A DNA stretch of 64,000 bases from Escherichia coli (GTDB lineage Bacteria; Pseudomonadota; Gammaproteobacteria; Enterobacterales; Enterobacteriaceae). The first letter of the stretch is position 1; each line of letters opens with the position of its first letter. Positions 21,662 to 34,800 of this stretch are shown one piece after another. Under the pieces are notes generated by a model. The model searched no databases. It was not told where the DNA came from and was given only the letters and a program-made list of their open reading frames with translations. Where the stretch lies: NCBI RefSeq assembly GCF_050320075.1, contig NZ_CP190018.1. The stretch is one strand, 5' to 3'. Both the position numbers and the translations under genes were made by a program.

Positions 21662-22397
21662 TTATTAAGTTCAAATTCAGGGCGTGGTGCATCACCTCCT
21701 GGTATTGTTGATCAACAAATTAGAGAAAAACTTATTAAACATATGAAATATCGAAGGCTTTTATTTTTCAAAGTTTCACGAGATGTTTGTATATGAAACT
21801 TAGTTAAATCTGTGTTTCTTCCAATTGTAGATCACAATGCCCTTTCTAAATTTTCATCGTTATAAACAAGCCATCTATCATATAAAGCAATGAATAATTT
21901 AATCGCGATTAATCATCATTAATTGTTATATTATTCACTCAATCTATTTATCAAGTGAATTTGATAAATTCCTAATTTAAAATATCCACTATTGAGCCAG
22001 TATTTAACAACGTTAAGATGTGCAATGTGCAGATCATGTTATCAGGGTGGAGCGGTAGCATATATTTCTTATGCAATCATTCATTTTAATAATGTTAATT
22101 GGATTATTTATTGCTGTGAATAAAAATATATTATGAATATTGGTTTAACTTTGCGTTTTTGTTACTCGTTGTGATATGCGTACCTGTCCTGAATAACGCC
22201 AAGAAACAAGAGGTTGAGCTTGTGATTATTTTTTTGACTGAACAGACACCCGTTTCTGTAAAGTAATATTTAAACAAAATTCTCACATAACCATAGCATT
22301 TTCTGTTCCTTCCCTAATAACGTCTGAAGTCGTCCCGCTTATCACATTATCCGCAGTTGTACGGTACGGATCATTATTCATTTTACTGGAGGTTGCT

Positions 22398-24299
22398 ATG
22401 TCAACCGGATTACGTTTCACACTGGAAGTGGACGGCCTGCCGCCGGATGCTTTTGCGGTGGTTTCCTTTCATCTGAACCAGTCACTCTCTTCGCTCTTTT
22501 CCCTCGATCTCTCCCTGGTCAGCCAGCAGTTTCTCTCCCTTGAATTTGCGCAGGTGCTGGACAAAATGGCCTACCTGACGGTATGGCAGGGCGATGACGT
22601 ACAGCGCCGGGTGAAAGGCGTGGTGACCTGGTTTGAACTCGGGGAGAACGACAAAAACCAGATGCTGTACAGCATGAAGGTGCACCCGCCGCTGTGGCGT
22701 GCCGGTCTGCGCCAGAACTTCCGTATCTTCCAGAACGAGGACATCAAAAGCATCCTCGGCACGATGTTGCAGGAAAACGGGGTGACCGAATGGAGTCCGC
22801 TGTTCAGCGAGCCGCATCCTTCCCGTGAGTTTTGTGTCCAGTACGGTGAGACTGATTACGATTTCCTGTGCCGGATGGCGGCGGAGGAAGGCATCTTCTT
22901 TTATGAGGAGCATGCTTACAAAAGTACCGACCAGAGCCTGGTGCTGTGCGACACAGTCCGCCATCTGCCCGAATCTTTTGAAATCCCATGGAACCCGAAC
23001 ACCCGTACCGAGGTGAGCACCCTCTGCATCAGCCAGTTCCGCTACAGCGCACAAATCCGCCCTTCTTCCGTGGTGACCAAAGACTACACCTTTAAACGCC
23101 CCGGCTGGGCCGGACGTTTTGAACAGGAAGGCCAGCACCAGGACTACCAGCGCACGCAGTATGAAGTGTATGACTACCCCGGACGTTTCAAGGGTGCCCA
23201 CGGGCAGAACTTTGCCCGCTGGCAGATGGACGGCTGGCGAAACAATGCAGAAACCGCGCGGGGAATGAGTCGCTCGCCGGAGATATGGCCGGGACGACGA
23301 ATTGTGCTGACGGGGCATCCGCAGGCGAACCTGAACCGGGAATGGCAGGTGGTGGCAAGTGAACTGCACGGCGAACAGCCACAGGCGGTGCCAGGACGGC
23401 AGGGAGCGGGGACGGCGCTGGAGAACCATTTTGCGGTGATCCCGGCAGACAGAACATGGCGACCACAGCCGTTGCTGAAACCGCTGGTCGACGGCCCGCA
23501 GAGCGCTGTCGTGACAGGACCGGCAGGCGAGGAAATCTTCTGCGACGAACATGGTCGCGTGCGGGTGAAGTTCAACTGGGACCGCTATAACCCGTCAAAC
23601 CAGGACAGTTCGTGCTGGATCCGTGTGGCACAGGCGTGGGCAGGCACCGGTTTTGGCCACCTGGCGATACCGCGTGTGGGTCAGGAGGTGATTGTAGACT
23701 TCCTCAACGGCGATCCGGACCAGCCGATCATTATGGGGCGCACCTACCACCAGGAAAACCGCACCCCCGGCAGCCTGCCGGGAACAAAGACGCAGATGAC
23801 CATCCGCTCCAAAACGTACATGGGCAGCGGATTTAATGAGCTGAAGTTTGATGATGCGACAGGGAGAGAACAGGTCTACATCCACGCGCAGAAGAACATG
23901 GATACCGAAGTGCTCAACGACCGTACCACCACCGTAAAACACGATCACCACGAAACCGTAAAAAATGACCAGACGGTCACGATCCAGGAAGGTAACCGCC
24001 TTCTTACGGTGGAAAAAGGCCACAAGATCACCGGAGTACTGAAAGGGTCTTTATCTGAGGATGTCTTTCAGGACAGAGGCACGATTGCCGGTTCGGTGCA
24101 TGTTGACGCTGTAAACAATGGTGGCGAAGGCGACGGTATACAGGCTTATACGGCGATTAAGGAAATTTTGCTGGCCGTGGAGGAAAGCAAAATTGCGCTG
24201 ACGCCGGATGGCATTCAGCTACAGGTCGGGGAATCGACGGTAATCAGGCTGTCGAAGGATGGCATCACCATCGTGGGCGGTTCTGTTTTCATCAACTGA
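22398..24299 (+). CDS. vgrG: Type VI secretion spike protein VgrG (gp27/gp5-like)
   Basis: 633-aa ORF MSTGLRFTLEVDGLPPDAFAVVSFHLNQSLSSLFSLDLSLVSQ... typical VgrG N-terminus; GGAGG RBS 7 nt upstream. Confidence 0.9.
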   Translation: MSTGLRFTLEVDGLPPDAFAVVSFHLNQSLSSLFSLDLSLVSQQFLSLEFAQVLDKMAYLTVWQGDDVQRRVKGVVTWFELGENDKNQMLYSMKVHPPLWRAGLRQNFRIFQNEDIKSILGTMLQENGVTEWSPLFSEPHPSREFCVQYGETDYDFLCRMAAEEGIFFYEEHAYKSTDQSLVLCDTVRHLPESFEIPWNPNTRTEVSTLCISQFRYSAQIRPSSVVTKDYTFKRPGWAGRFEQEGQHQDYQRTQYEVYDYPGRFKGAHGQNFARWQMDGWRNNAETARGMSRSPEIWPGRRIVLTGHPQANLNREWQVVASELHGEQPQAVPGRQGAGTALENHFAVIPADRTWRPQPLLKPLVDGPQSAVVTGPAGEEIFCDEHGRVRVKFNWDRYNPSNQDSSCWIRVAQAWAGTGFGHLAIPRVGQEVIVDFLNGDPDQPIIMGRTYHQENRTPGSLPGTKTQMTIRSKTYMGSGFNELKFDDATGREQVYIHAQKNMDTEVLNDRTTTVKHDHHETVKNDQTVTIQEGNRLLTVEKGHKITGVLKGSLSEDVFQDRGTIAGSVHVDAVNNGGEGDGIQAYTAIKEILLAVEESKIALTPDGIQLQVGESTVIRLSKDGITIVGGSVFIN

Positions 24300-24326: not shown

Positions 24327-24788
24327 ATGCAGTTCACTTTTAATGAAGGCCACATTCAACTGCCGTCTCAATGGCAGGATCAGTCAATGCAGGTCCTGGT
24401 GTCCACAGATAACAGTGGCATCAACCTGGTCATTACCCGCGAAGCCGTTCCACAGGGAACCCTGACACCAGAGCTGTACCAGGAAACGCTGGCGCTGTAC
24501 CAGGGCAAACTTGATGGGTACACCGAACATGCCTGCCGGGAAATCACTCTGGCAGAGGCCCCGGCCTGGCTGCTGGATTATTCCTGGAACGGTCCGGAAG
24601 ATGAGGGGAATCAGGGGCGGATTAGCCAGATAGCCGTATTCCAGCGGCGTGGAGATACGCTGCTGACCTTCACTTTCAGCACCTCCTTATCCCTGAAGAA
24701 CAGTCAAAAGACGATGCTGCTGGAGGTGATAAAGAGCTTCACCCCGTTGCCACCGGAGAATGACATCCAAAAGGACCAGCCGCGCTGA
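24327..24788 (+). CDS. DUF1795-family (Eag-type) effector-associated chaperone
   Basis: 153-aa ORF immediately between vgrG and a prePAAR-Rhs gene; size and position match Eag chaperones; family assignment from memory of the sequence class, not from a search. Confidence 0.65.
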   Translation: MQFTFNEGHIQLPSQWQDQSMQVLVSTDNSGINLVITREAVPQGTLTPELYQETLALYQGKLDGYTEHACREITLAEAPAWLLDYSWNGPEDEGNQGRISQIAVFQRRGDTLLTFTFSTSLSLKNSQKTMLLEVIKSFTPLPPENDIQKDQPR

Positions 24789-24807: not shown

Positions 24808-27800
24808 ATGAGTGAAGGACCAGGCGGGCCACAGGGAGCGACCGCAGGCGGTACGCTGGCAATGCGAATGCTGTCACAGCAGGCGATGGTCGCCAGCCAG
24901 ATGAAACGGGCAGCCAACGACAAAGCCATTGCACAGATGCTGGCATCAAAAAAGTCCGGCCCCCCCGCCGCCAGGCTGGGCGATGAAATTCAGCACAAGA
25001 GTTTTTTGGGGGCGCTGGCAGGGGCCGTGCTGGGGGCGATAGTGACCATCGCAGAAGGTTGCCTGATTATGGCCGCCTGTGCCACCGGCCCTTATGCGCT
25101 GGTTCTGGTGCCTGCGCTGATGTATGCCAGCTATAAGGCGAGTGATTATGTGGAGGAGAAACAGAACCAGCTTGAATCATGGATAAACAGCTTTTGTGAC
25201 ACGGACGGCGCCATCAATACCGGTTCTGAAAATGTAAACATTAACGGAAAGCCCGCTGCCAGGGCCGCCGTCACCCTTCCCCCTCCTCCCCCACCTGGAG
25301 CAATACCTGAAATCCCACAGGGGGAACCCTCATGGGGTGATATTGCCACTGACCTGCTTGAATCGGCAGCGGAAAAAGCAGTACCACTGGCGAAGGCCTG
25401 GGGGAACGCTGTTATCACCCTGACGGACAGCAATGCCGGTTTTATGGATCGCGTCAGCGCCGGCGCATCGCTTCTGTTTCCCGCCGGTCCGGTATTAATG
25501 GAGTTTGCCACCATGGTGGGCGGGCGTGGCGAAATCAAAAAAGATGTGGATTTCCCGGAAGCCGGTGAGGACACGGCGCTCTGCGACAAGGAGAACAAAC
25601 CACCGAGGATAGCCCAGGGCAGCAGCAACGTCTTTATCAACAATCAGCCCGCCGCGCGCAAGGGCGACAAACTGGAGTGCAGCGCGGCAATCGTGGAAGG
25701 TTCGCCGGACGTCTTTATTGGCGGTGAACAGGTGACCTATCTGGATATCCAGCCAGAGTTCCCGCCGTGGCAGAGAATGATCCTGGGGGGAATAACGATA
25801 GCCAGCTATCTTCTGCCGCCAGCGGGACTGCTGGGAAAACTGAAGAATCTGGCGAGACTCGGCAAACTGGGGAACCTGCTGGGGAAAAGCGGGAAGCTGC
25901 TGGGGGCAAAGCTCGGCGCGTTGCTGGGAAAAACAGGTAAGTCGTTAAAAAGTATTGCCAATAAAGTCATCAGATGGGTAACAGATCCTGTCGATCCGGT
26001 AACCGGCGCGTACTGCGACGAACGTACCGACTTTACGCTGGGCCAGACCCTCCCCCTCTCCTTCACCCGTTTCCACAGTTCTGTACTGCCGCTGCATGGC
26101 CTGACCGGCGTGGGCTGGAGCGACTCCTGGAGCGAATACGCCTGGGTGCGTGAACAGGGAAACCGGGTGGATATCATCAGCCAGGGAGCCACGCTGAACT
26201 TCGCCTTCGACGGTGACAGTGATACGGCGGTTAACCCGTATCACGCCCAGTACATTCTGCGCCGCCGCGATGATTATCTGGAGCTGTTCGACAGGGATGC
26301 ACTGAGCAGCCGCTTCTTTTATGACGCCTTTCCGGGAATGCGTCTGCGCCACCCGGTGACTGACGATACCAGCGATGACCGCCTGGCACACAGCCCCAAT
26401 GACCGGATGTACATGCTGGGCGGGATGAGCGACACCGCCAGCAACCGCATCACGTTTGAGCGCGACAGCCAGTACCGGATCACAGGTGTCAGTCACACCG
26501 ACGGGATCCGGCTTAAACTGACGTACCACGCCAGCGGCTACCTGAAAGCCATTCACCGCACGGATAACGGCATACAGACGCTGGCGACCTACGAACAGGA
26601 TGCGCGGGGGCGGCTGACAGAAGCGGATGCGCGGCTGGACTACCACCTGTTTTATGAGTACGACGCTGCGGACCGGATCATCCGCTGGTCCGATAACGAC
26701 CAGACGTGGAGCCGTTTCACCTACGATGAACAGGGCCGGTGCGTGAATGTCACCGGGGCGGAGGGCTATTACAACGCCACGCTGGACTATGGTGACGGCT
26801 GCACCACCGTGACGGACGGCAAGGGCATTCACCGTTATTACTATGATCCTGACGGCAATATTCTGCGGGAAGCAGCGCCGGACGGCAGCACCACCATGTA
26901 TGAATGGGATGAATTCCATCACCTGCTGGCCCGTCACTCCCCTGCCGGGCGGGTGGAGAAATTTGAATACAACGCCGCACACGGTCAGTTAAGCCGTTAC
27001 ACGGCGGCAGACGGCGCGGAGTGGCAGTACCGCTATGATGAGCGCGGCCTGCTCAGCAACATCACCGACCCTGCCGGGCAGACGTGGACACAGCAGTGTG
27101 ATGAACGCGGCCTGCCGGTAAGTCTGGTGTCGCCACAGGGCGAAGAGACCCGGCTGGCATACACCGCTCAGGGGCTGCTGTCGGGAATATTCCGCCAGGA
27201 TGAACGGCGTCTGGGCATAGAGTACGACCACCACAACCGGCCGGAAACACTCACCGACGTGATGGGCCGCGAACACCACACCGAATACAGTGGTCACGAC
27301 CTGCCGGTGAAGATGCGCGGCCCCGGCGGTCAGTCAGTGAGGTTGCAGTGGCAGCAGCACCATAAACTGAGCGGCCTTGAGCGCACTGGCACCGGCGCGG
27401 AAGGATTCCGCTACGACCGTCACGGCAACCTGCTGGCGTACACGGACGGTAACGGTGTTGTCTGGACAATGGAGTACGGCCCGTTTGATTTGCCGGTGGC
27501 GCGAACGGACGGTGAAGGCCACCGCTGGCAGTACCGCTACGATAAAGACACGCTGCAACTGACAGAAGTCATCAACCCGCAGGGTGAGTCATATCTTTAT
27601 GTTCTGGATAACTGCGGCCGGGTGACGGAAGAGCGTGACTGGGGCGGCGTGGTCTGGCGTTACCGTTATGATGCCGATGGCCTGTGTACCGCCAGGGTTA
27701 ACGGTCTGGAGGAAACCATCCTCTACAGCCGGGACGCCGCAGGCCGCCTGGCAGAAGTCATCACGCCGGAAGGCAAAACGCAGTATGCGTATGACAAATC

Positions 27801-29640
27801 CGGCAGGCTGACGGGTATCTTCAGCCCGGACGGCACATCACAGCGCACCGGCTATGACGAACGCGGGCGGGTGAATGTCACCACTCAGGGCCGACGGGCC
27901 ATTGAATACCACTACCCCGATGAACACACCGTCATCCGCTGTATCCTGCCACCGGAAGATGAACGCGACAGACACCCCGGTGAATCCCTGCTGAAAACCA
28001 CGTACCGCTACAACGCAGCCGGAGAACTGGCAGAGGTCATCCTGCCGGAGGATGAGACGCTGACGTTCAGCCGTGATGAGGCAGGACGTGAAGTGCTCCG
28101 GCACAGTAACCGGGGTTTTGCCTGTGAGCAGGGCTGGAATGCAGCCGGTCAGCTTACCAGCCAGCGCGCCGGACTTTTCCCGGCGGAAGCCACATGGGGC
28201 GGACTGCTCCCCTCACTGGTGCGGGAGTACCGTTACGACAGCGCGGGCAATGTGTCGGCTGTCACCAGCCGGGAAGATTACGGACGGGAAACTCGCCGGG
28301 AGTACCGGCTGGACCGGAACGGCCAGGTCACGGCGGTGACAGCCTCAGGCACCGGGCTGGGCTATGGCGAAGGCGATGAGTCCTATGGCTATGACAGCTG
28401 CGGCTACCTGAAGGCGCAGTCTGCGGGCTGGCACCGGATAAGTGAAGAGACTGACCAGTATGCCGGAGGCCACCGGCTGAAACAGGCCGGAAACACGCAG
28501 TATGACTATGACGCCGCAGGCCGGATGGTCAGCCGCATAAAACACCGTGACGGCTACCGCCCGGAAACAGAGCGGTTCCGGTGGGACAGCCGTGACCAGC
28601 TGACCGGGTATTGCAGCGCACAGGGTGAACAGTGGGAATACCGCCACGACGCCAGCGGCAGACGGACGGAAAAACGCTGCGACCGGAAGAAAATCCGCAT
28701 CACGTACCTGTGGGACGGCGACAGTATTGCGGAAATCCGGGAATACCGCGATGATAAACTGTACAGCGTACGGCACCTGGTGTTTAACGGCTTTGAGCTG
28801 ATAAGCCAGCAGTGCAGCCGGGTACGGCAGCCGCATCCGTCCGTGGCCCCGCAGTGGGTGACGCGGACGAATCATGCGGTGAGCGACCTGACGGGCCGTC
28901 CGCTGATGCTCTTTAACAGTGAAGGTAAAACCGTCTGGCGACCGGGGCAGACCAGCCTGTGGGGGCTGGCACTCAGCCTGCCCGCAGACACCGGCTACCC
29001 GGACCCGCGCGGGGAACTGGACGCGGAAGCCGACCCCGGCCTGCTGTATGCAGGACAGTGGCAGGATGCGGAATCCGGGCTGTGCTATAACCGGTTCCGG
29101 TATTACGAGCCGGAAACAGGGATGTACCTGGTGAGTGATCCGCTGGGGTTGCTGGGGGGTGAGCAGACTTACCGGTATGTGCCGAATCCGTGTGGGTATG
29201 TTGATCCGCTGGGATTAGCATTTTGCCCCAGAATGCAGAAGACATTGCAAAAATTAACTGACAAGGCTGTTGCTGATATTATCGCTAACCCCAGACTCGC
29301 TGAAGATCTGATGTCGGCGGGGAGCTATGCACATTTAAAAAATGGAACTAATTTATATGCAGCCAGTTTTGGTAAGGCTGTTGAACGTAGGGTTGCACAG
29401 TTAGTTAGTGACAATTCCCGATTAAGCAAACTTGTTGAACATACTGGTCAGGCCAAGGGGGCTAATGGACAGTTTATATCGAGCCCTGACTTCACCACTA
29501 AAGGTAAAGGCGTGTTCGACGTTACAACAAATAAAGCACTCCAAGCGCATATAGACAGATATACTAAAGCTGGTGTGTATACTCCCTATAATGATATTGG
29601 TTACTTGGTATATGATGTCGTATATGGATTATCTTTCTAA
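24808..29640 (+). CDS. rhs: prePAAR/PAAR-domain Rhs polymorphic toxin (T6SS effector) with C-terminal toxin domain
   Basis: 1610-aa ORF; N-terminal AARLGDEIQH (prePAAR AARxxDxxxH), hydrophobic TM segments, PAAR-like segments (NINGKPAAR, FINNQPAARKGD), long YD-repeat region, Rhs core ending PCGYVDPLGL (PxxxxDPxGL) at 29188-29217, followed by ~141-aa low-GC C-terminal domain. Confidence 0.9.
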   Translation: MSEGPGGPQGATAGGTLAMRMLSQQAMVASQMKRAANDKAIAQMLASKKSGPPAARLGDEIQHKSFLGALAGAVLGAIVTIAEGCLIMAACATGPYALVLVPALMYASYKASDYVEEKQNQLESWINSFCDTDGAINTGSENVNINGKPAARAAVTLPPPPPPGAIPEIPQGEPSWGDIATDLLESAAEKAVPLAKAWGNAVITLTDSNAGFMDRVSAGASLLFPAGPVLMEFATMVGGRGEIKKDVDFPEAGEDTALCDKENKPPRIAQGSSNVFINNQPAARKGDKLECSAAIVEGSPDVFIGGEQVTYLDIQPEFPPWQRMILGGITIASYLLPPAGLLGKLKNLARLGKLGNLLGKSGKLLGAKLGALLGKTGKSLKSIANKVIRWVTDPVDPVTGAYCDERTDFTLGQTLPLSFTRFHSSVLPLHGLTGVGWSDSWSEYAWVREQGNRVDIISQGATLNFAFDGDSDTAVNPYHAQYILRRRDDYLELFDRDALSSRFFYDAFPGMRLRHPVTDDTSDDRLAHSPNDRMYMLGGMSDTASNRITFERDSQYRITGVSHTDGIRLKLTYHASGYLKAIHRTDNGIQTLATYEQDARGRLTEADARLDYHLFYEYDAADRIIRWSDNDQTWSRFTYDEQGRCVNVTGAEGYYNATLDYGDGCTTVTDGKGIHRYYYDPDGNILREAAPDGSTTMYEWDEFHHLLARHSPAGRVEKFEYNAAHGQLSRYTAADGAEWQYRYDERGLLSNITDPAGQTWTQQCDERGLPVSLVSPQGEETRLAYTAQGLLSGIFRQDERRLGIEYDHHNRPETLTDVMGREHHTEYSGHDLPVKMRGPGGQSVRLQWQQHHKLSGLERTGTGAEGFRYDRHGNLLAYTDGNGVVWTMEYGPFDLPVARTDGEGHRWQYRYDKDTLQLTEVINPQGESYLYVLDNCGRVTEERDWGGVVWRYRYDADGLCTARVNGLEETILYSRDAAGRLAEVITPEGKTQYAYDKSGRLTGIFSPDGTSQRTGYDERGRVNVTTQGRRAIEYHYPDEHTVIRCILPPEDERDRHPGESLLKTTYRYNAAGELAEVILPEDETLTFSRDEAGREVLRHSNRGFACEQGWNAAGQLTSQRAGLFPAEATWGGLLPSLVREYRYDSAGNVSAVTSREDYGRETRREYRLDRNGQVTAVTASGTGLGYGEGDESYGYDSCGYLKAQSAGWHRISEETDQYAGGHRLKQAGNTQYDYDAAGRMVSRIKHRDGYRPETERFRWDSRDQLTGYCSAQGEQWEYRHDASGRRTEKRCDRKKIRITYLWDGDSIAEIREYRDDKLYSVRHLVFNGFELISQQCSRVRQPHPSVAPQWVTRTNHAVSDLTGRPLMLFNSEGKTVWRPGQTSLWGLALSLPADTGYPDPRGELDAEADPGLLYAGQWQDAESGLCYNRFRYYEPETGMYLVSDPLGLLGGEQTYRYVPNPCGYVDPLGLAFCPRMQKTLQKLTDKAVADIIANPRLAEDLMSAGSYAHLKNGTNLYAASFGKAVERRVAQLVSDNSRLSKLVEHTGQAKGANGQFISSPDFTTKGKGVFDVTTNKALQAHIDRYTKAGVYTPYNDIGYLVYDVVYGLSF
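27186..29217 (+). repeat. Direct repeat copy 1 (3' part of Rhs core, ~2.03 kb)
   Basis: Near-identical to 30384..32412 (visible by eye: ATTCCGCCAGGATGAACGGCGTCTGGGCATAGAGTACGACCACCAC... through ...GATCCGCTGGGATT). Confidence 0.9.
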
Positions 29641-29662
29641 AGCAAACTAATGGTAACTAAAT

Positions 29663-30373
29663 ATGACAAAAGTTCTTGAGAATGAAGAGTTCAATTCTAT
29701 ACATATAGACGAAGGTGGGGTTTTTAATAGTTTACGCTTTGAAAAATGTCTTTTTCAAAGCTGTAGCATACTTAGCAGAAAACTAAATGATAATAGTGAT
29801 TTACCTCCTCGCTTTGAAAACATTCTCATTAAAGATTGCACTGCTCTTAATTGTGTAAGTGGCCCAGCTTTTTTAAAAGATGTAACTGTTGAGAATTTTA
29901 GGACCGGTGATATTTTTCTTATTTATTCCACTATGTTTCATCATGTAACATTAAAAGGAAAGCTTGGGGCAATAAAAATAAATAAAAAAGATTATGTGCG
30001 TGACTATGATAGCCATCAAAGACATATTGAGATGATGAGAACGAGATTTTATTCTCAGATAGATTGGGCGATGGATATATCACAGGCGAAGTTTTTAAGT
30101 TTCTCCTGCAAAGGTATCCCAGCAAAATTAATTAGACGAGATAGTGAGACTCAATTTGTTGTAACGAGGAAACGTTTCAACTCTATGGATGTACTAAATG
30201 CAGAATTTAAAGGACAATACCCGTTTGTTTATTTACTGCTGGAGCTCTTTTTAGAATCAGATGAAGATGACCAGGTATTAGTTACACCATTAGGCAAAGC
30301 AAAAAAATATTATCAGCCAATTCTCGAAGGATTTAGAGAGTTAAGACGAGCAGGAATACTCGAACCTAACTAA
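29663..30373 (+). CDS. Putative cognate immunity protein of the Rhs C-terminal toxin
   Basis: 236-aa ORF starting 22 nt after the rhs stop, AT-rich codon usage unlike the Rhs core; position is the canonical immunity slot. No recognisable family. Confidence 0.6.
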   Translation: MTKVLENEEFNSIHIDEGGVFNSLRFEKCLFQSCSILSRKLNDNSDLPPRFENILIKDCTALNCVSGPAFLKDVTVENFRTGDIFLIYSTMFHHVTLKGKLGAIKINKKDYVRDYDSHQRHIEMMRTRFYSQIDWAMDISQAKFLSFSCKGIPAKLIRRDSETQFVVTRKRFNSMDVLNAEFKGQYPFVYLLLELFLESDEDDQVLVTPLGKAKKYYQPILEGFRELRRAGILEPN

Positions 30374-30383
30374 ATAAGGGTTA

Positions 30384-32412
30384 TATTCCGCCAGGATGAA
30401 CGGCGTCTGGGCATAGAGTACGACCACCACAACCGGCCGGAAACACTCACCGACGTGATGGGCCGCGAACACCACACCGAATACAGTGGTCACGACCTGC
30501 CGGTGAAGATGCGCGGCCCCGGCGGTCAGTCAGTGCGCTTACAGTGGCAGCAGCACCATAAACTGAGTGGCCTTGAGCGCACTGGCACCGGCGCGGAAGG
30601 ATTCCGCTACGACCGCCACGGCAACCTGCTGGCCTGGACGGACGGTAACGGTGTTGTCTGGACAATGGAATACGGCCCGTTTGATTTGCCGGTGGCGCGA
30701 ACGGACGGTGAAGGCCACCGCTGGCAGTACCGCTACGATAAAGACACGCTGCAACTGACAGAAGTCATTAACCCGCAGGGTGAGTCATATCTTTATGTTC
30801 TGGATAACTGCGGCCGGGTGACGGAAGAGCATGACTGGGGCGGCGTGGTCTGGCGTTACCGCTATGACGCCGATGGCCTGTGTACCGCCAGGGTCAACGG
30901 CCTGGAGGAAACCATCCTCTACAGCCGGGACGCCGCAGGCCGCCTGGCAGAAGTCATCACGCCGGAAGGCAAAACGCAGTATGCCTATGACAAATCCGGC
31001 AGGCTGACGGGTATCTTCAGCCCGGACGGCACATCACAGCGCACCGGCTATGACGAACGCGGGCGGGTGAATGTCACCACTCAGGGCCGACGGGCCATTG
31101 AATACCACTACCCCGACGAACACACCGTCATCCGCTGTATCCTGCCACCGGAAGATGAACGCGACAGACACCCCGGTGAATCCCTGCTGAAAACCACGTA
31201 CCGCTACAACGCCGCCGGAGAACTGACGGAGGTCATTCTGCCGGGGGATGAGACGCTGACGTTCAGCCGTGATGAGGCAGGACGTGAAGTGCTCCGGCAC
31301 AGTAACCGGGGTTTTGCCTGTGAACAGGGCTGGAATGCAGCCGGTCAGCCTGTCAGTCAGCGCGCCGGACTTTTCCCGGCAGAAGCCACATGGGGCGGGC
31401 TGCTCCCCTCACGGGTACGGGAGTACCGTTACGACAGCGCGGGTAATGTGTCAGGCGTCACCAGCCGGGAAGATTACGGACGGGAAACACGGCGGGAATA
31501 CCGGCTGGACCGGAACGGCCAGGTCACGGCGGTGACAGCCTCAGGCACCGGGCTGGGCTATGGCGAAGGCGATGAGTCCTATGGCTATGACAGCTGCGGC
31601 TACCTGAAGGCGCAGTCTGCGGGCTGGCACCGGATAAGTGAAGAGACTGACCAGTATGCCGGAGGCCACCGGCTGAAACAGGCCGGAAACACGCAGTATG
31701 ACTATGACGCCGCAGGCCGGATGGTCAGCCGCATAAAACACCGTGACGGCTACCGCCCGGAAACAGAGCGGTTCCGGTGGGACAGCCGTGACCAGCTGAC
31801 CGGGTATTGCAGCGCACAGGGTGAACAGTGGGAATACCGCCACGACGCCAGCGGCAGACGGACGGAAAAACGCTGCGACCGGAAGAAAATCCGCATCACG
31901 TACCTGTGGGACGGCGAAGTATTGCGGAAATCCGGGAATACCGCGATGATAAACTGTACAGCGTACGGCACCTGGTGTTTAACGGCTTTGAGCTGATAAG
32001 CCAGCAGTTCAGCCGGGTACGGCAGGCGCATCCGTCGGTGGCCCCGCAGTGGGTGACACGGACGAATCATGCGGTGAGCGACCTGACGGGCCGTCCGCTG
32101 ATGCTCTTTAACAGTGAAGGTAAAACCGTCTGGCGACCGGGACAGACCAGCCTGTGGGGGCTGGCACTCAGCCTGCCCGCAGACACCGGCTACCCGGACC
32201 CGCGCGGGGAACTGGACCCGGAAGCCGACCCCGGCCTGCTGTATGCAGGACAGTGGCAGGATGCAGAATCCGGGCTGTGCTATAACCGGTTCCGGTATTA
32301 CGAGCCGGAAACCGGGATGTACCTGGTGAGTGATCCGCTGGGGTTGCTGGGGGGTGAGCAGACTTACCGGTATGTGCCAAATCCGTGTGGGTGGGTTGAT
32401 CCGCTGGGATTG
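30384..32412 (+). repeat. Direct repeat copy 2 (orphan Rhs core fragment)
   Basis: See copy 1 at 27186..29217. Confidence 0.9.
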
Positions 32413-32865
32413 GCTGCAAGTTCTAAAATCAGCAGTTTGATGGACTATATTGGCGATGGTCGTCGTGTTAGTGGGCATACGGGTTTCCTGGATGGGGTTC
32501 GTTTATCACGTAGTCAAATAAACAATATTGCTAAAGAAATGGAGAAGCTAGGAATTAAAGTAATAAGGAAAGCAGATAAATATTTGCCACCAAATGCTAG
32601 GGCAGCTTTTGATTATGGCCTTCGCAATATTTATCTTAGGAAAAATGCTACCTTATATGAGGTGTATCATGAAGTGATTCATGCTAAGCAATTTGCGAAA
32701 ATTGGACGAGAAGCATACGAAGCACTAGGACGTTTATCTAGGGAGGAACACGTTCTAAATGAAATATTAAAAAGTAAAAATTTATTCAATGAGGCGGAAA
32801 TAGCTCATGCCATAAAATATGTTGAGGGATTGAGAGAAAAATTCATGATGGGACTAATAAATTGA
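30384..32865 (+). pseudogene. Orphan Rhs core-fragment + alternative C-terminal toxin domain, frameshifted
   Basis: Repeats the 3' 2 kb of the rhs core; 1-bp deletion near 31917 (GGCGAAGTATTGCGG vs GGCGACAGTATTGCGG in the main copy) splits it into ORFs 30455..31996 and 31828..32865; ends DPLGL (32398-32412) + divergent ~150-aa CT containing HEVIH. Confidence 0.8.
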
Positions 32866-33113
32866 TAAAACATAACAAAATAACTATCGAAATGGCTCTT
32901 GACTTGGCTCGGCGTGAGTTAGAGTTAAGGGAAATTCCTTATATTAAAAATAGTCTACATGCCAATTACAGCTATAAATCTATTAGTATTGGTTCTAAGC
33001 AAGGTTGGTTAATTTCAGCGAAATTAAAAGTCCCTGAAACTTTTGAGCCTGATATGATATTTATTGAGATATCTGACCCAGAAGGTTTTATTAATATTCC
33101 TGATGTATTATAA
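32862..33113 (+). CDS. Putative immunity protein for the orphan Rhs-CT
   Basis: 83-aa low-GC ORF overlapping the orphan CT stop; start codon uncertain (TTG in ORF track). Confidence 0.45.
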   Translation: MIKHNKITIEMALDLARRELELREIPYIKNSLHANYSYKSISIGSKQGWLISAKLKVPETFEPDMIFIEISDPEGFINIPDVL

Positions 33114-33309: not shown

Positions 33310-33500
33310 AAACCAGTAACCCGTATCACGCCCAGTACATCCTGCGCCGCCGCGATGATTACCTGGTGCTGTTCGACCGTGATGCCCTGAGCTGCCGCTT
33401 CTTTTATGACGCCTTTCCGGGAATGCGTCTGCGCCACCAGGTGACCGGCGATACCGACGATGACCGCCTGGCACACAGCCCCGCAGACCGGATGTATACA
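33310..33500 (+). pseudogene. Vestigial Rhs core fragment
   Basis: NPYHAQYILRRRDDYLVLFDRDALSCRFFYDAFPGMRLRH... matches main rhs at ~26228..26420; embedded in ORF 33228..33539 with unrelated flanks. Confidence 0.7.
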
Positions 33501-33579
33501 GGGAAAGATCATCAGAAGTACACTTTTTGTACTAAATAATTCACATTTTATGTTTAAAAATTGAGATATTCCTCATTAC

Positions 33580-34800
33580 CTGAAGCTGTTTTTTATTGCT
33601 TATACATGATCAAATACTCCTTACATAATTAAGGAGAACAAAATGGAACTTAAAAAATTGATGGAACATATTTCTATTATTCCCGATTACAGACAAGCCT
33701 GGAAAGTGGAACATAAATTATCGGATATTCTATTGTTGACTATTTGTGCCGTTATTTCTGGTGCGGAAGATTGGGAAGATATAGAGGATTTTGGGGAAAC
33801 ACATCTCGATTTTTTGAAGCAATATGGTGATTTTGAAAATGGTATTCCTGTTCACGATACCATTGCCAGAGTTGTATCCTGTATCAGTCCTGCAAAATTT
33901 CACGAGTGCTTTATTAACTGGATGCGTGACTGCCATTCTTCAGATGATAAAGACGTCATTGCAATTGATGGAAAAACGCTCCGGCACTCTTATGACAAGA
34001 GTCGCCGCAGGGGAGCGATTCATGTCATTAGTGCGTTCTCAACAATGCACAGTCTGGTCATCGGACAGATCAGGACGGATGAGAAATCCAATGAGATTAC
34101 AGCTATCCCAGAACTTCTTAACATGCTGGATATTAAAGGAAAAATCATCACAACTGATGCGATGGGTTGCCAGAAAGATATTGCAGAGAAGATACAAAAA
34201 CAGGGAGGTGATTATTTATTCGCGGTAAAAGGAAACCAGGGGCGGCTAAATAAAGCCTTCGAGGAAAAATTTCCGCTGAAAGAATTAAATAATCCAGAGC
34301 ATGACAGTTACGCAATGAGTGAAAAGAGTCACGGCAGAGAAGAAATCCGTCTTCACATTGTTTGCGATGTCCCTGATGAACTTATTGATTTCACGTTTGA
34401 ATGGAAAGGTCTGAAGAAATTATGCGTGGCAGTCTCCTTTCGGTCAATAATAGCAGAACAAAAGAAAGAGCCAGAAATGACGGTCAGATATTATATTAGT
34501 TCTGCTGATTTAACCGCAGAGAAGTTCGCCACAGCAATCCGAAACCACTGGCACGTGGAGAATAAGCTGCACTGGCGTCTGGACGTGGTAATGAATGAAG
34601 ACGACTGCAAAATAAGAAGAGGAAATGCAGCAGAATTATTTTCAGGGATACGGCACATCGCTATTAATATTTTGACGAATGATAAGGTATTCAAGGCAGG
34701 GTTAAGACGTAAGATGCGAAAAGCAGCCATGGACAGAAACTATCTGGCGTCAGTCCTTGCGGGGAGCGGGCTTTCGTAATCTTGCCCTGCCTGCTCACCT
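33580..34800 (+). mobile_element. H-rpt / ISAs1-family insertion sequence (approximate bounds)
   Basis: Transposase CDS 33643..34779; terminal inverted repeats not delimited by me. Confidence 0.5.
33643..34779 (+). CDS. H-repeat-associated protein / ISAs1-family transposase (H-rpt)
   Basis: 378-aa [63 protein letters not shown]... recognised as the H-rpt (YhhI/YdcC-like) transposase that accompanies Rhs elements. Confidence 0.85.

Follow-up and report, generated by a model that had tools for sequence, protein, structure and literature searches.

What is encoded by the low-GC end of a long rhs gene of Escherichia coli, and what is the role of the small gene that directly follows it? The question is raised by a stretch of 64,000 nucleotides of E. 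coli DNA (NCBI RefSeq assembly GCF_050320075.1, contig NZ_CP190018.1), called the window below, which matches many E. coli chromosomes at 100% identity. An earlier examination of this DNA from its letters only (hereafter the sequence-only reading) had considered the C-terminal part of the Rhs protein to be the swapped tip of a polymorphic toxin and the next open reading frame (ORF), of 236 amino acids (aa), to be its candidate immunity gene, and could place neither protein in a known family. We consider, with a probability of about 0.6, that the two form a working type VI secretion system (T6SS) PAAR-Rhs effector-immunity module, in which the tip would be a nuclease of the PD-(D/E)xK fold and the 236-aa protein would be an immunity protein that binds it directly. 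The architecture of the carrier, the family of the tip, the toxin-immunity linkage, the predicted folds of both proteins and the repeats around the module were established in this analysis.

The Rhs carrier and the boundaries of its tip

The Rhs ORF (24808-29640, plus strand) is intact and encodes 1610 aa. A prePAAR-like motif, AARLGDEIQH, was found at aa 54-63 and is followed by a hydrophobic stretch at aa 64-105, the two together corresponding to nucleotides 24967-25122. The PAAR domain lies at aa 263-305 (T6SS_PAAR_dom), the repeat region matches YD_repeat with an E-value of 7.6e-70, and the Rhs_assc_core match covers aa 1408-1470. The locus thus contains the parts by which T6SS PAAR-Rhs effectors are recognised, namely a PAAR domain, a YD shell, a core ending in DPxGL, an upstream vgrG with a chaperone-type gene, and a variable tip that occurs on unrelated carriers with a conserved small gene directly downstream. 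By analogy with described effectors, this layout corresponds to the standard Eag-chaperoned, transmembrane-domain T6SS Rhs effector, which would act in the cytoplasm of the target cell.

The motif PCGYVDPLGL, after which the sequence-only reading had placed the start of the tip, was confirmed at 29188-29217, where it forms aa 1461-1470 of the Rhs protein. The tail behind it runs from AFCPRMQ to YGLSF (nucleotides 29218-29637, Rhs aa 1471-1610). Its length had been given as about 141 aa; the tail is indeed present and comprises 140 residues, the figure of 141 being reached when the stop codon is counted. The reported sharp fall in GC content after the motif was also found, the values being 0.604 for the Rhs core, 0.411 for the tail and 0.339 for the ORF that follows, and it is steeper at third codon positions (0.70, 0.34 and 0.25, respectively). 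The next ORF is AT-rich as described, occupies 29663-30373, encodes 236 aa and begins 22 nt 3' of the Rhs stop codon.

The low-GC DNA (29218-30382) is exactly the unique DNA between two direct repeats of 2 kb, at 27187-29216 and 30383-32411, which are 97.6% identical by blastn. Because the low-GC DNA fills the exact gap between the repeats, the break in composition is a true module boundary. The view of the tail as a swapped polymorphic toxin tip agrees with its start after the DPxGL motif, its position between repeats of the rhs core and the C-terminal place of its family on varied carriers. The second repeat belongs to an orphan rhs fragment and supplies homology for tip swapping; recombination between the two repeats would delete the module and fuse the main Rhs protein to an orphan metallopeptidase tip. 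In E. coli strain 144 (locus L001, 4660-9491), the same rhs gene was annotated as frameshifted by RefSeq, and the module DNA is 100% identical to positions 29150-30450 of the window. In some carriers, the delivery part may be inactive while the immunity gene is kept.

Family and predicted fold of the tip

No match to the tail was obtained in Pfam even at E<=10, either with the query or with 40 family members, and the Tox-REase and VRR-Nuc models were among those searched. Neither the tail nor the 236-aa protein matched NCBIfam (noise only), PADLOC or PHROGs. In the PDB, no significant match to the tail was found by single sequence or by profile, and no profile match fell below an E-value of 0.05. 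In RefSeq, the tip has no domain annotation and the protein encoded by the following gene is labelled 'hypothetical'. A word-indexed search returned only 3 homologs of the tail, probably because full-length Rhs proteins are clustered under representatives with different tips. By an exhaustive profile search, 108 cluster representatives were recovered at E<=0.001, including 51 at E<=1e-10. In all of these except two weak matches, the domain ends at most 25 residues from the C-terminus. The carriers comprise Rhs/YD proteins, one protein with an intein/Hint C-terminal region, proteins of 4000-4500 aa and short orphans. Members and structural relatives were recorded in Erwinia, Pasteurella, Stenotrophomonas, Methylobacterium, Rhizobium, Sphingomonas, Planctomycetes, a Deltaproteobacteria genome, Leptospiraceae, Amycolatopsis and others. 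As judged from these sequence comparisons, the tail belongs to a real but unannotated toxin family. One member is a 268-aa orphan putative toxin (...IDPTGL...), which is encoded with an immunity homolog inside an integrase-flanked element (locus L002, 7198-8705); the element also carries a Barstar-family gene and is distant from all Rhs and T6SS genes.

Across 86 aligned domains, the residues P25, G52, A54, E56, R57, P90-D91-F92, an acidic residue at 101, T103, T104, H111 and R114 (numbered from the start of the tail) are conserved in 84-100% of the sequences, and position 53 is K or N. Every family-conserved residue is retained in the E. coli tail, which is basic (isoelectric point, pI, 9.3). 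The AlphaFold2 model of the tail reached a mean predicted local distance difference test (pLDDT) score of 82 and a predicted template modelling (pTM) score of 0.81. In this model, E56 was placed on a helix at 47-64, P90-D91 just before a strand at 92-94, D101-V-T103 on a strand at 99-104, and H111 and R114 on a helix at 108-117 that is followed by a strand at 127-132. The order of the conserved residues, with E on a helix, then PD, a strand with (D/E)xT, a helix and a strand, is that of the core of the PD-(D/E)xK fold.

The structural neighbours that best resemble the tail are PD-(D/E)xK nucleases, with modest scores. A Foldseek search of AFDB50 listed the family members first and then BsaWI, DUF559/Vsr-type proteins and AHJR-like restriction endonucleases, all with weak E-values. 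DNA enzymes (type II restriction enzymes, Cas4, McrC, VRR-NUC and Vsr-like proteins) lead the neighbours both in strength and in number, and the list also holds viral cap-snatching endonucleases, which are RNA-cleaving PD-(D/E)xK enzymes, and RAP-domain proteins of mitoribosomes. On the strength of the model, the tail is probably a restriction-endonuclease-like (PD-(D/E)xK) nuclease with a non-canonical site. The core fold predicted for the tail is that of other PD-(D/E)xK toxins (Tox-REase, E. coli Rhs-CT3 with REase-3, the VRR-Nuc effector TseV, and CdiA-CTs, CT denoting the C-terminal toxin domain), which are likewise located at the tip of a delivery protein, are followed directly by a cytoplasmic immunity gene and are expected to act on nucleic acids. 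The E. coli tail differs from them in the T that replaces the signature K, in a conserved helix with H-x-x-R after the third strand and in an N-terminal part of four helices, which is included in the conserved domain.

A further resemblance was noted to Vsr, a PD-(D/E)xK variant lacking the lysine. Vsr shares the pattern P-D-F...T, with P-D51-F, T63-H64 and H69, residues with catalytic roles, and its spacing of 12 residues from D to T equals that from D91 to T103. It has no acidic residue that matches D/E101 of the E. coli tail. The resemblance, read from the sequences, may serve as a lead.

The 236-aa partner and its relation to known systems

Each of the other loci examined (11 of 11) has a homolog of the 236-aa protein, recognised by hmmsearch with E-values from 1e-51 to 1e-100, whose start is located -3 to +25 nt downstream of the toxin ORF. 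These loci came from Stenotrophomonas, Pasteurella, Rhizobium, Methylobacterium, Sphingomonas, Planctomycetaceae and two metagenome or assembly contigs. The sample consisted of nine loci from a scan of species-representative genomes, of loci reached through immunity homologs and of a Stenotrophomonas rhizophila locus; the scan used a 13-sequence subset and a single peptide pattern, AS[FY]GKAVER, so that its nine loci are a biased sample. The pairwise identities of toxin and partner are correlated (r 0.69, Mantel p 0.0002), which indicates co-inheritance and would agree with co-evolution. Of the two proteins, the partner has diverged more rapidly, with identities of 63% vs 84% for the toxin and of about 33% vs about 60%. 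Among 5426 complete E. coli genomes, the tip was found in 158 and the immunity gene in 159, both always in a single chromosomal copy; in 157 of the 158 carriers the tip is at least 99% identical, and it is always paired with the immunity gene. The proposal that the ORF in the immunity position is an immunity gene is therefore supported by synteny, and the sequence comparisons support the 236-aa protein as the cognate immunity partner.

Some copies depart from this pattern. One E. coli genome carries a divergent copy of the tip with 84% nucleotide identity (NZ_CM135150.1, 1377852-1378269), and in another only the last 39% of the immunity gene is left, inside a gene annotated as a PAAR protein (NZ_CP096587.1, 3382884-3383158). 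Both are likely traces of past tip swaps. In Rhizobium sp. P38BS-XIX (locus L011, 3821-5059), a 412-aa ORF joins a toxin remnant to the immunity protein; the remnant is frameshifted and the normal toxin C-terminus lies in another frame, so this ORF was rejected as a designed toxin-immunity fusion. A HipA-like gene adjoins it. A similar read-through seems to underlie the AFDB entry A0A7X8SVP4 (412 aa, 'right handed beta helix').

The word-indexed search found 14 relatives of the 236-aa protein, down to 29% identity. The E. coli protein had no match in Pfam even at E<=10 and no sequence match in the PDB. Of 11 homologs, one was matched by Pentapeptide_4 at E<=0.001 and four were matched at E<=0.1, and the best PDB match of the family profile was the AlbG/McbG-like structure 2xt2, with a marginal E-value of 0.005. 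A five-residue register is visible in the sequence. The predicted structure is a right-handed quadrilateral pentapeptide-repeat beta-helix followed by a C-terminal alpha/beta domain, and its best structural neighbours include EfsQnr, MfpA, AhQnr and AlbG. The beta-helix is short, with about five coils in about 110 aa, and is not acidic (pI 6.8-7.6). The most conserved motifs (DWA[LM]D, G[IV]PAxLI[RK]RD and TQxVVTR, with an invariant GIPAKLIRRD..TQ.VVTR) are held by the alpha/beta domain. The protein is non-acidic, with a pI of 7.6 and a net charge of about zero. It contains no signal peptide or membrane segment, its maximum KD19 hydropathy being 0.95, which fits a toxin that acts in the cytoplasm.

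These properties distinguish it from known pentapeptide-repeat proteins (6fls, EfsQnr, MfpA, AlbG/McbG) by the short helix, the net charge near zero and the extra C-terminal domain, and its genomic role is that of a polymorphic-toxin immunity protein, unlike that of the gyrase-associated proteins. DNA mimicry, an idea suggested by the Qnr/MfpA-like fold, was rejected given the lack of net negative charge. In the light of the model, the beta-helix more probably serves as a rigid support on which the toxin is bound. A fold of this predicted kind is uncommon for an immunity role. The structural comparison recommended by the sequence-only reading has thus yielded a candidate fold for each protein, PD-(D/E)xK-like with modest scores for the tip and a pentapeptide-repeat beta-helix for its partner. 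The statement that neither belongs to a known family holds for the sequence libraries and has to be amended in view of these folds and of a very probable kinship with the Tse6/Tsi6a pair of Stenotrophomonas.

Tse6 is the Rhs tip of S. rhizophila CFBP13503 and was described in July 2026 as a rare domain of unknown function (bioRxiv 10.64898/2026.07.13.738213). Its relatives were reported from Actinomycetes, Planctomycetes and alpha-, gamma- and delta-proteobacteria, on carriers with PAAR, Rhs, HINT, TPS and other domains, and the immunity protein of Tse6, called Tsi6a, was likened to a 'pentapeptide repeat-containing' antitoxin (bioRxiv 10.64898/2026.07.13.738213). Deletion of tse6 relieved the T6SS killing of three Actinomycetes, and activity was reported against some Actinomycetes only; these are genetic competition data, with no biochemistry, and the decision to 'assign it as a nuclease' is accompanied by no fold, active site or assay (bioRxiv 10.64898/2026.07.13.738213). 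The competition data are the one indirect support for toxicity of the E. coli tip. In the two cases alike, the pair consists of a PAAR-Rhs C-terminal domain and a pentapeptide-repeat-like immunity protein, is rare and occurs in similar taxa and on similar carriers.

One representative of the present family clusters at 90% identity with a 1551-aa Rhs protein of S. rhizophila, WP_448132835.1. Its gene follows a DegQ-like gene, VgrG and an adaptor and precedes a peptidase S9 gene, and the DegQ-like and peptidase S9 flanks are those given for tse6 (vgrG6 cluster). The tip of WP_448132835.1 shares 62% identity with that of E. coli, and the gene behind it encodes a protein with 34% identity to the 236-aa protein (E 1e-48). 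Judging from this related S. rhizophila locus rather than from the CFBP13503 sequences themselves, the E. coli pair very probably belongs to the Tse6/Tsi6a family. There are differences: 8 genes were called in the cluster of the S. rhizophila genome found here vs 14 in CFBP13503, and the E. coli carrier has a prePAAR/transmembrane N-terminus and an Eag-type chaperone, whereas Stenotrophomonas has its adaptor instead. Surveys of E. coli Rhs tips distinguished ten types, Rhs-CT1 to CT10, including MPTase4 and REase-3 tips (PMC6730261). No description of the present tip was found for E. coli in the literature, and a full-text search for the immunity accession WP_001550770 returned nothing. The 'chaperone-effector-immunity' system of uropathogenic E. 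coli UMN026 was considered and rejected as the same system, since its adaptor is of the DUF4123 type and its immunity protein is a lipoprotein.

Proposed action, surrounding island and significance

From these observations, we infer toxicity, nuclease chemistry, a substrate and neutralisation by direct binding as follows. The Rhs protein would be mounted on VgrG with the help of the upstream Eag-type chaperone. The YD shell would enclose its last 140 residues, which self-cleavage after DPLGL would set free and which would reach the cytoplasm of a neighbouring cell. There, the tail would cut nucleic acid as a metal-dependent nuclease, with E56, D91 and D/E101 as putative metal ligands and with T103, T104, H111, R114 and K53 completing the site, in which K/N53 may supply the missing positive charge. 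In this assignment, E56 would belong to the first core helix, P90-D91 to the start of the second strand and D/E101-x-T103-T104 to the third strand, with T at the classic place of K, and H111 and R114 would lie on the helix that follows it. DNA would be a more likely substrate than RNA. The 236-aa protein would shield the producer and its kin in the cytoplasm through direct binding of the toxin, and the downstream 2-kb rhs repeat would permit a swap to the orphan metallopeptidase tip together with replacement of the immunity gene.

Several points weigh against this interpretation. The model of the tail was built from an alignment of three sequences, and two of the five models had a pLDDT near 50-57; the clustering of the conserved residues in space is presumed from the predicted structure. 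None of the profile searches (Pfam, PDB, PADLOC, PHROGs) ties the family to any nuclease, and the family profile aligned to Vsr with an hhalign probability of 1.2%, which leaves the Vsr link suggested by the PDF...T spacing unsupported. The signature lysine of (D/E)xK is absent, position 103 being T in 84 of 86 domains. Lysine-less variants exist within the PD-(D/E)xK superfamily, such as BglII, BamHI and Vsr, so the missing lysine weakens membership in the canonical group and not the ability to work like one. On the side of the partner, a simple DNA-mimic mechanism is unsupported for a non-acidic protein. Finally, Gram-negative prey were not susceptible to Tse6 (bioRxiv 10.64898/2026.07.13.738213), which, if the families are the same, fits poorly with a weapon of E. 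coli against its kin.

The most serious alternative is that the tip has the same fold and is an RNase, for instance one specific for tRNA or rRNA like some PD-(D/E)xK CdiA-CT toxins, which would stop translation rather than degrade the chromosome. All of the fold and motif evidence applies equally to such an enzyme, as the fold alone does not separate DNases from tRNases in this superfamily, which includes CdiA-CT toxins such as that of Bp1026b. The non-canonical site, with T for K and with conserved H111 and R114, leaves room for unusual chemistry, and the cap-snatching endonucleases and mitoribosomal RAP-domain proteins stand among the structural neighbours. The predominance of DNA enzymes among the strongest neighbours speaks indirectly for DNA, and an RNase is regarded here as possible but doubtful. 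It was also considered whether the 236-aa protein shields gyrase or topoisomerase, in the manner of McbG, AlbG and Qnr, from a tip that poisons the topoisomerase-DNA complex. Proteins of this type are self-immunity factors against gyrase poisons, and both the neighbours EfsQnr, MfpA, AhQnr and AlbG and the profile match to 2xt2 point in this direction. Gyrase-directed repeat proteins are, however, long acidic DNA mimics, while the helix found here is short and non-acidic and is joined to an extra conserved C-terminal domain; moreover, the partner outpaces the toxin in divergence, as expected of a direct binder and unlike a protector of a conserved housekeeping enzyme. Target protection therefore appears improbable; if true, the pair would be the first T6SS effector-immunity pair that uses a repeat-protein DNA surrogate. 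In a milder reading, the tip may found a lysine-less PD-(D/E)xK branch with an unusual substrate, and the immunity fold may be new for polymorphic toxins.

Two further possibilities were given very little credence. The tip might not be a nuclease and might instead act as an ADP-ribosyltransferase or on another protein or small molecule, as the fold assignment is of modest strength and a structural relative of Tse6 in M. chelonae was predicted to be an ADP-ribosyltransferase (bioRxiv 10.64898/2026.07.13.738213). Alternatively, the module could have decayed into a relic that serves no function in E. coli today, its toxin having lost activity and its immunity gene having been kept. The frameshift annotated in the same rhs gene of one RefSeq genome, the broken orphan rhs next door and the tip remnant read into the immunity gene in Rhizobium would agree with decay; against it stand the intact 1610-aa ORF of the window, the retention of all family-conserved residues and the near identity of the tip in 157 of 158 carriers, always together with the immunity gene. 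An effector-immunity module with a PD-(D/E)xK-like nuclease tip and a directly binding partner is the interpretation that we prefer.

The module lies within an island that is inserted between cusS and nfrB in the matching RefSeq genome and whose order is vgrG, a DcrB-type gene, the PAAR-Rhs gene, the 236-aa ORF, the orphan rhs with its tip, an 83-aa ORF, an rhs scrap and ISEc1 (Table 1). The 153-aa DcrB-type protein had no NCBIfam match, and the equivalent gene of a related locus (L003) matches PF08786 (DcrB); from its position and from published work on Eag proteins and prePAAR, it is a putative Eag-type chaperone. GC content falls to 0.32 at 22000-22300, immediately upstream of vgrG, which is probably the left edge of the inserted island beside cusS. 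Two reading frames (30455-31996 and 31828-32865) make up the orphan rhs, the split lying near 31830-31996, and since the frame breaks right after ...ITYLWDG, the gene is frameshifted besides being truncated at its N-terminus. An MPTase4 tip of E. coli has been described as Rhs-CT1 (PMC6730261). From its position, the 83-aa ORF is presumably the immunity gene of the orphan tip. The rhs scrap and ISEc1 constitute the end of the rhs island, in the form of the classic H-repeat end of an rhs element.

Table 1 Features of the rhs island in the window and candidate active-site codons of the tip
Feature	Position	Strand	Basis or remark
vgrG, T6SS spike carrying the Rhs effector	22398..24299	+	TIGR03361 VI_Rhs_Vgr, E 5.7e-188; RefSeq VgrG
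153-aa DcrB/DUF1795-type protein in Eag chaperone position	24327..24788	+	RefSeq 'DcrB-related protein'
PAAR-Rhs delivery part, ending in PCGYVDPLGL	24808..29217	+	YD_repeat, Rhs_assc_core and T6SS_PAAR_dom matches; motif and hydropathy from sequence
Putative C-terminal toxin domain, 140 aa, with stop	29218..29640	+	Residues end at 29637
Candidate active-site codon E56	29383-29385	+	Conservation
Candidate active-site codon D91	29488-29490	+	Conservation
Candidate active-site codon D101	29518-29520	+	Conservation
Candidate active-site codons T103 and T104	29524-29529	+	Conservation
Candidate active-site codon H111	29548-29550	+	Conservation
Candidate active-site codon R114	29557-29559	+	Conservation
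Probable cognate immunity protein, 236 aa	29663..30373	+	Predicted N-terminal pentapeptide-repeat-like beta-helix and C-terminal alpha/beta domain
Orphan rhs core fragment	30383..32411	+	Direct repeat of 27187-29216 (blastn, 97.6%); RefSeq pseudogene 'missing N-terminus'
Orphan toxin tip, zincin/MPTase4 type, HEVIH motif	32412..32865	+	RefSeq 'zincin-like metallopeptidase toxin domain-containing protein'
83-aa ORF in immunity position for the orphan tip	32862..33113	+	RefSeq hypothetical protein at the matching place
rhs scrap, 180 bp	33317-33496	+	91.7% identical to 26232-26411 (blastn)
ISEc1 (ISAs1-family) transposase gene	33643-34779	+	RefSeq annotation, ORF; 33317..34779 together with the rhs scrap

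The sequence-only reading had ranked this pair as the most plausible place for new biochemistry in the window, which was too high a rating for one more nuclease-like Rhs tip. The pair is not new in kind, its family has probably just been named in the preprint on Tse6, and the general understanding of Rhs toxins would not be changed by it. Carriage by about 3% of complete E. coli genomes (158/5426) makes the tip part of the real competition arsenal of the species. A Pfam-style model could be built from the 108 representatives. With the family defined, the catalogue of toxins would gain a lysine-less member of restriction-endonuclease-like type, and the use of a pentapeptide-repeat scaffold for immunity to a toxin would be on record. 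The work on Stenotrophomonas Tse6 would also obtain a tractable E. coli system and residues to mutate.

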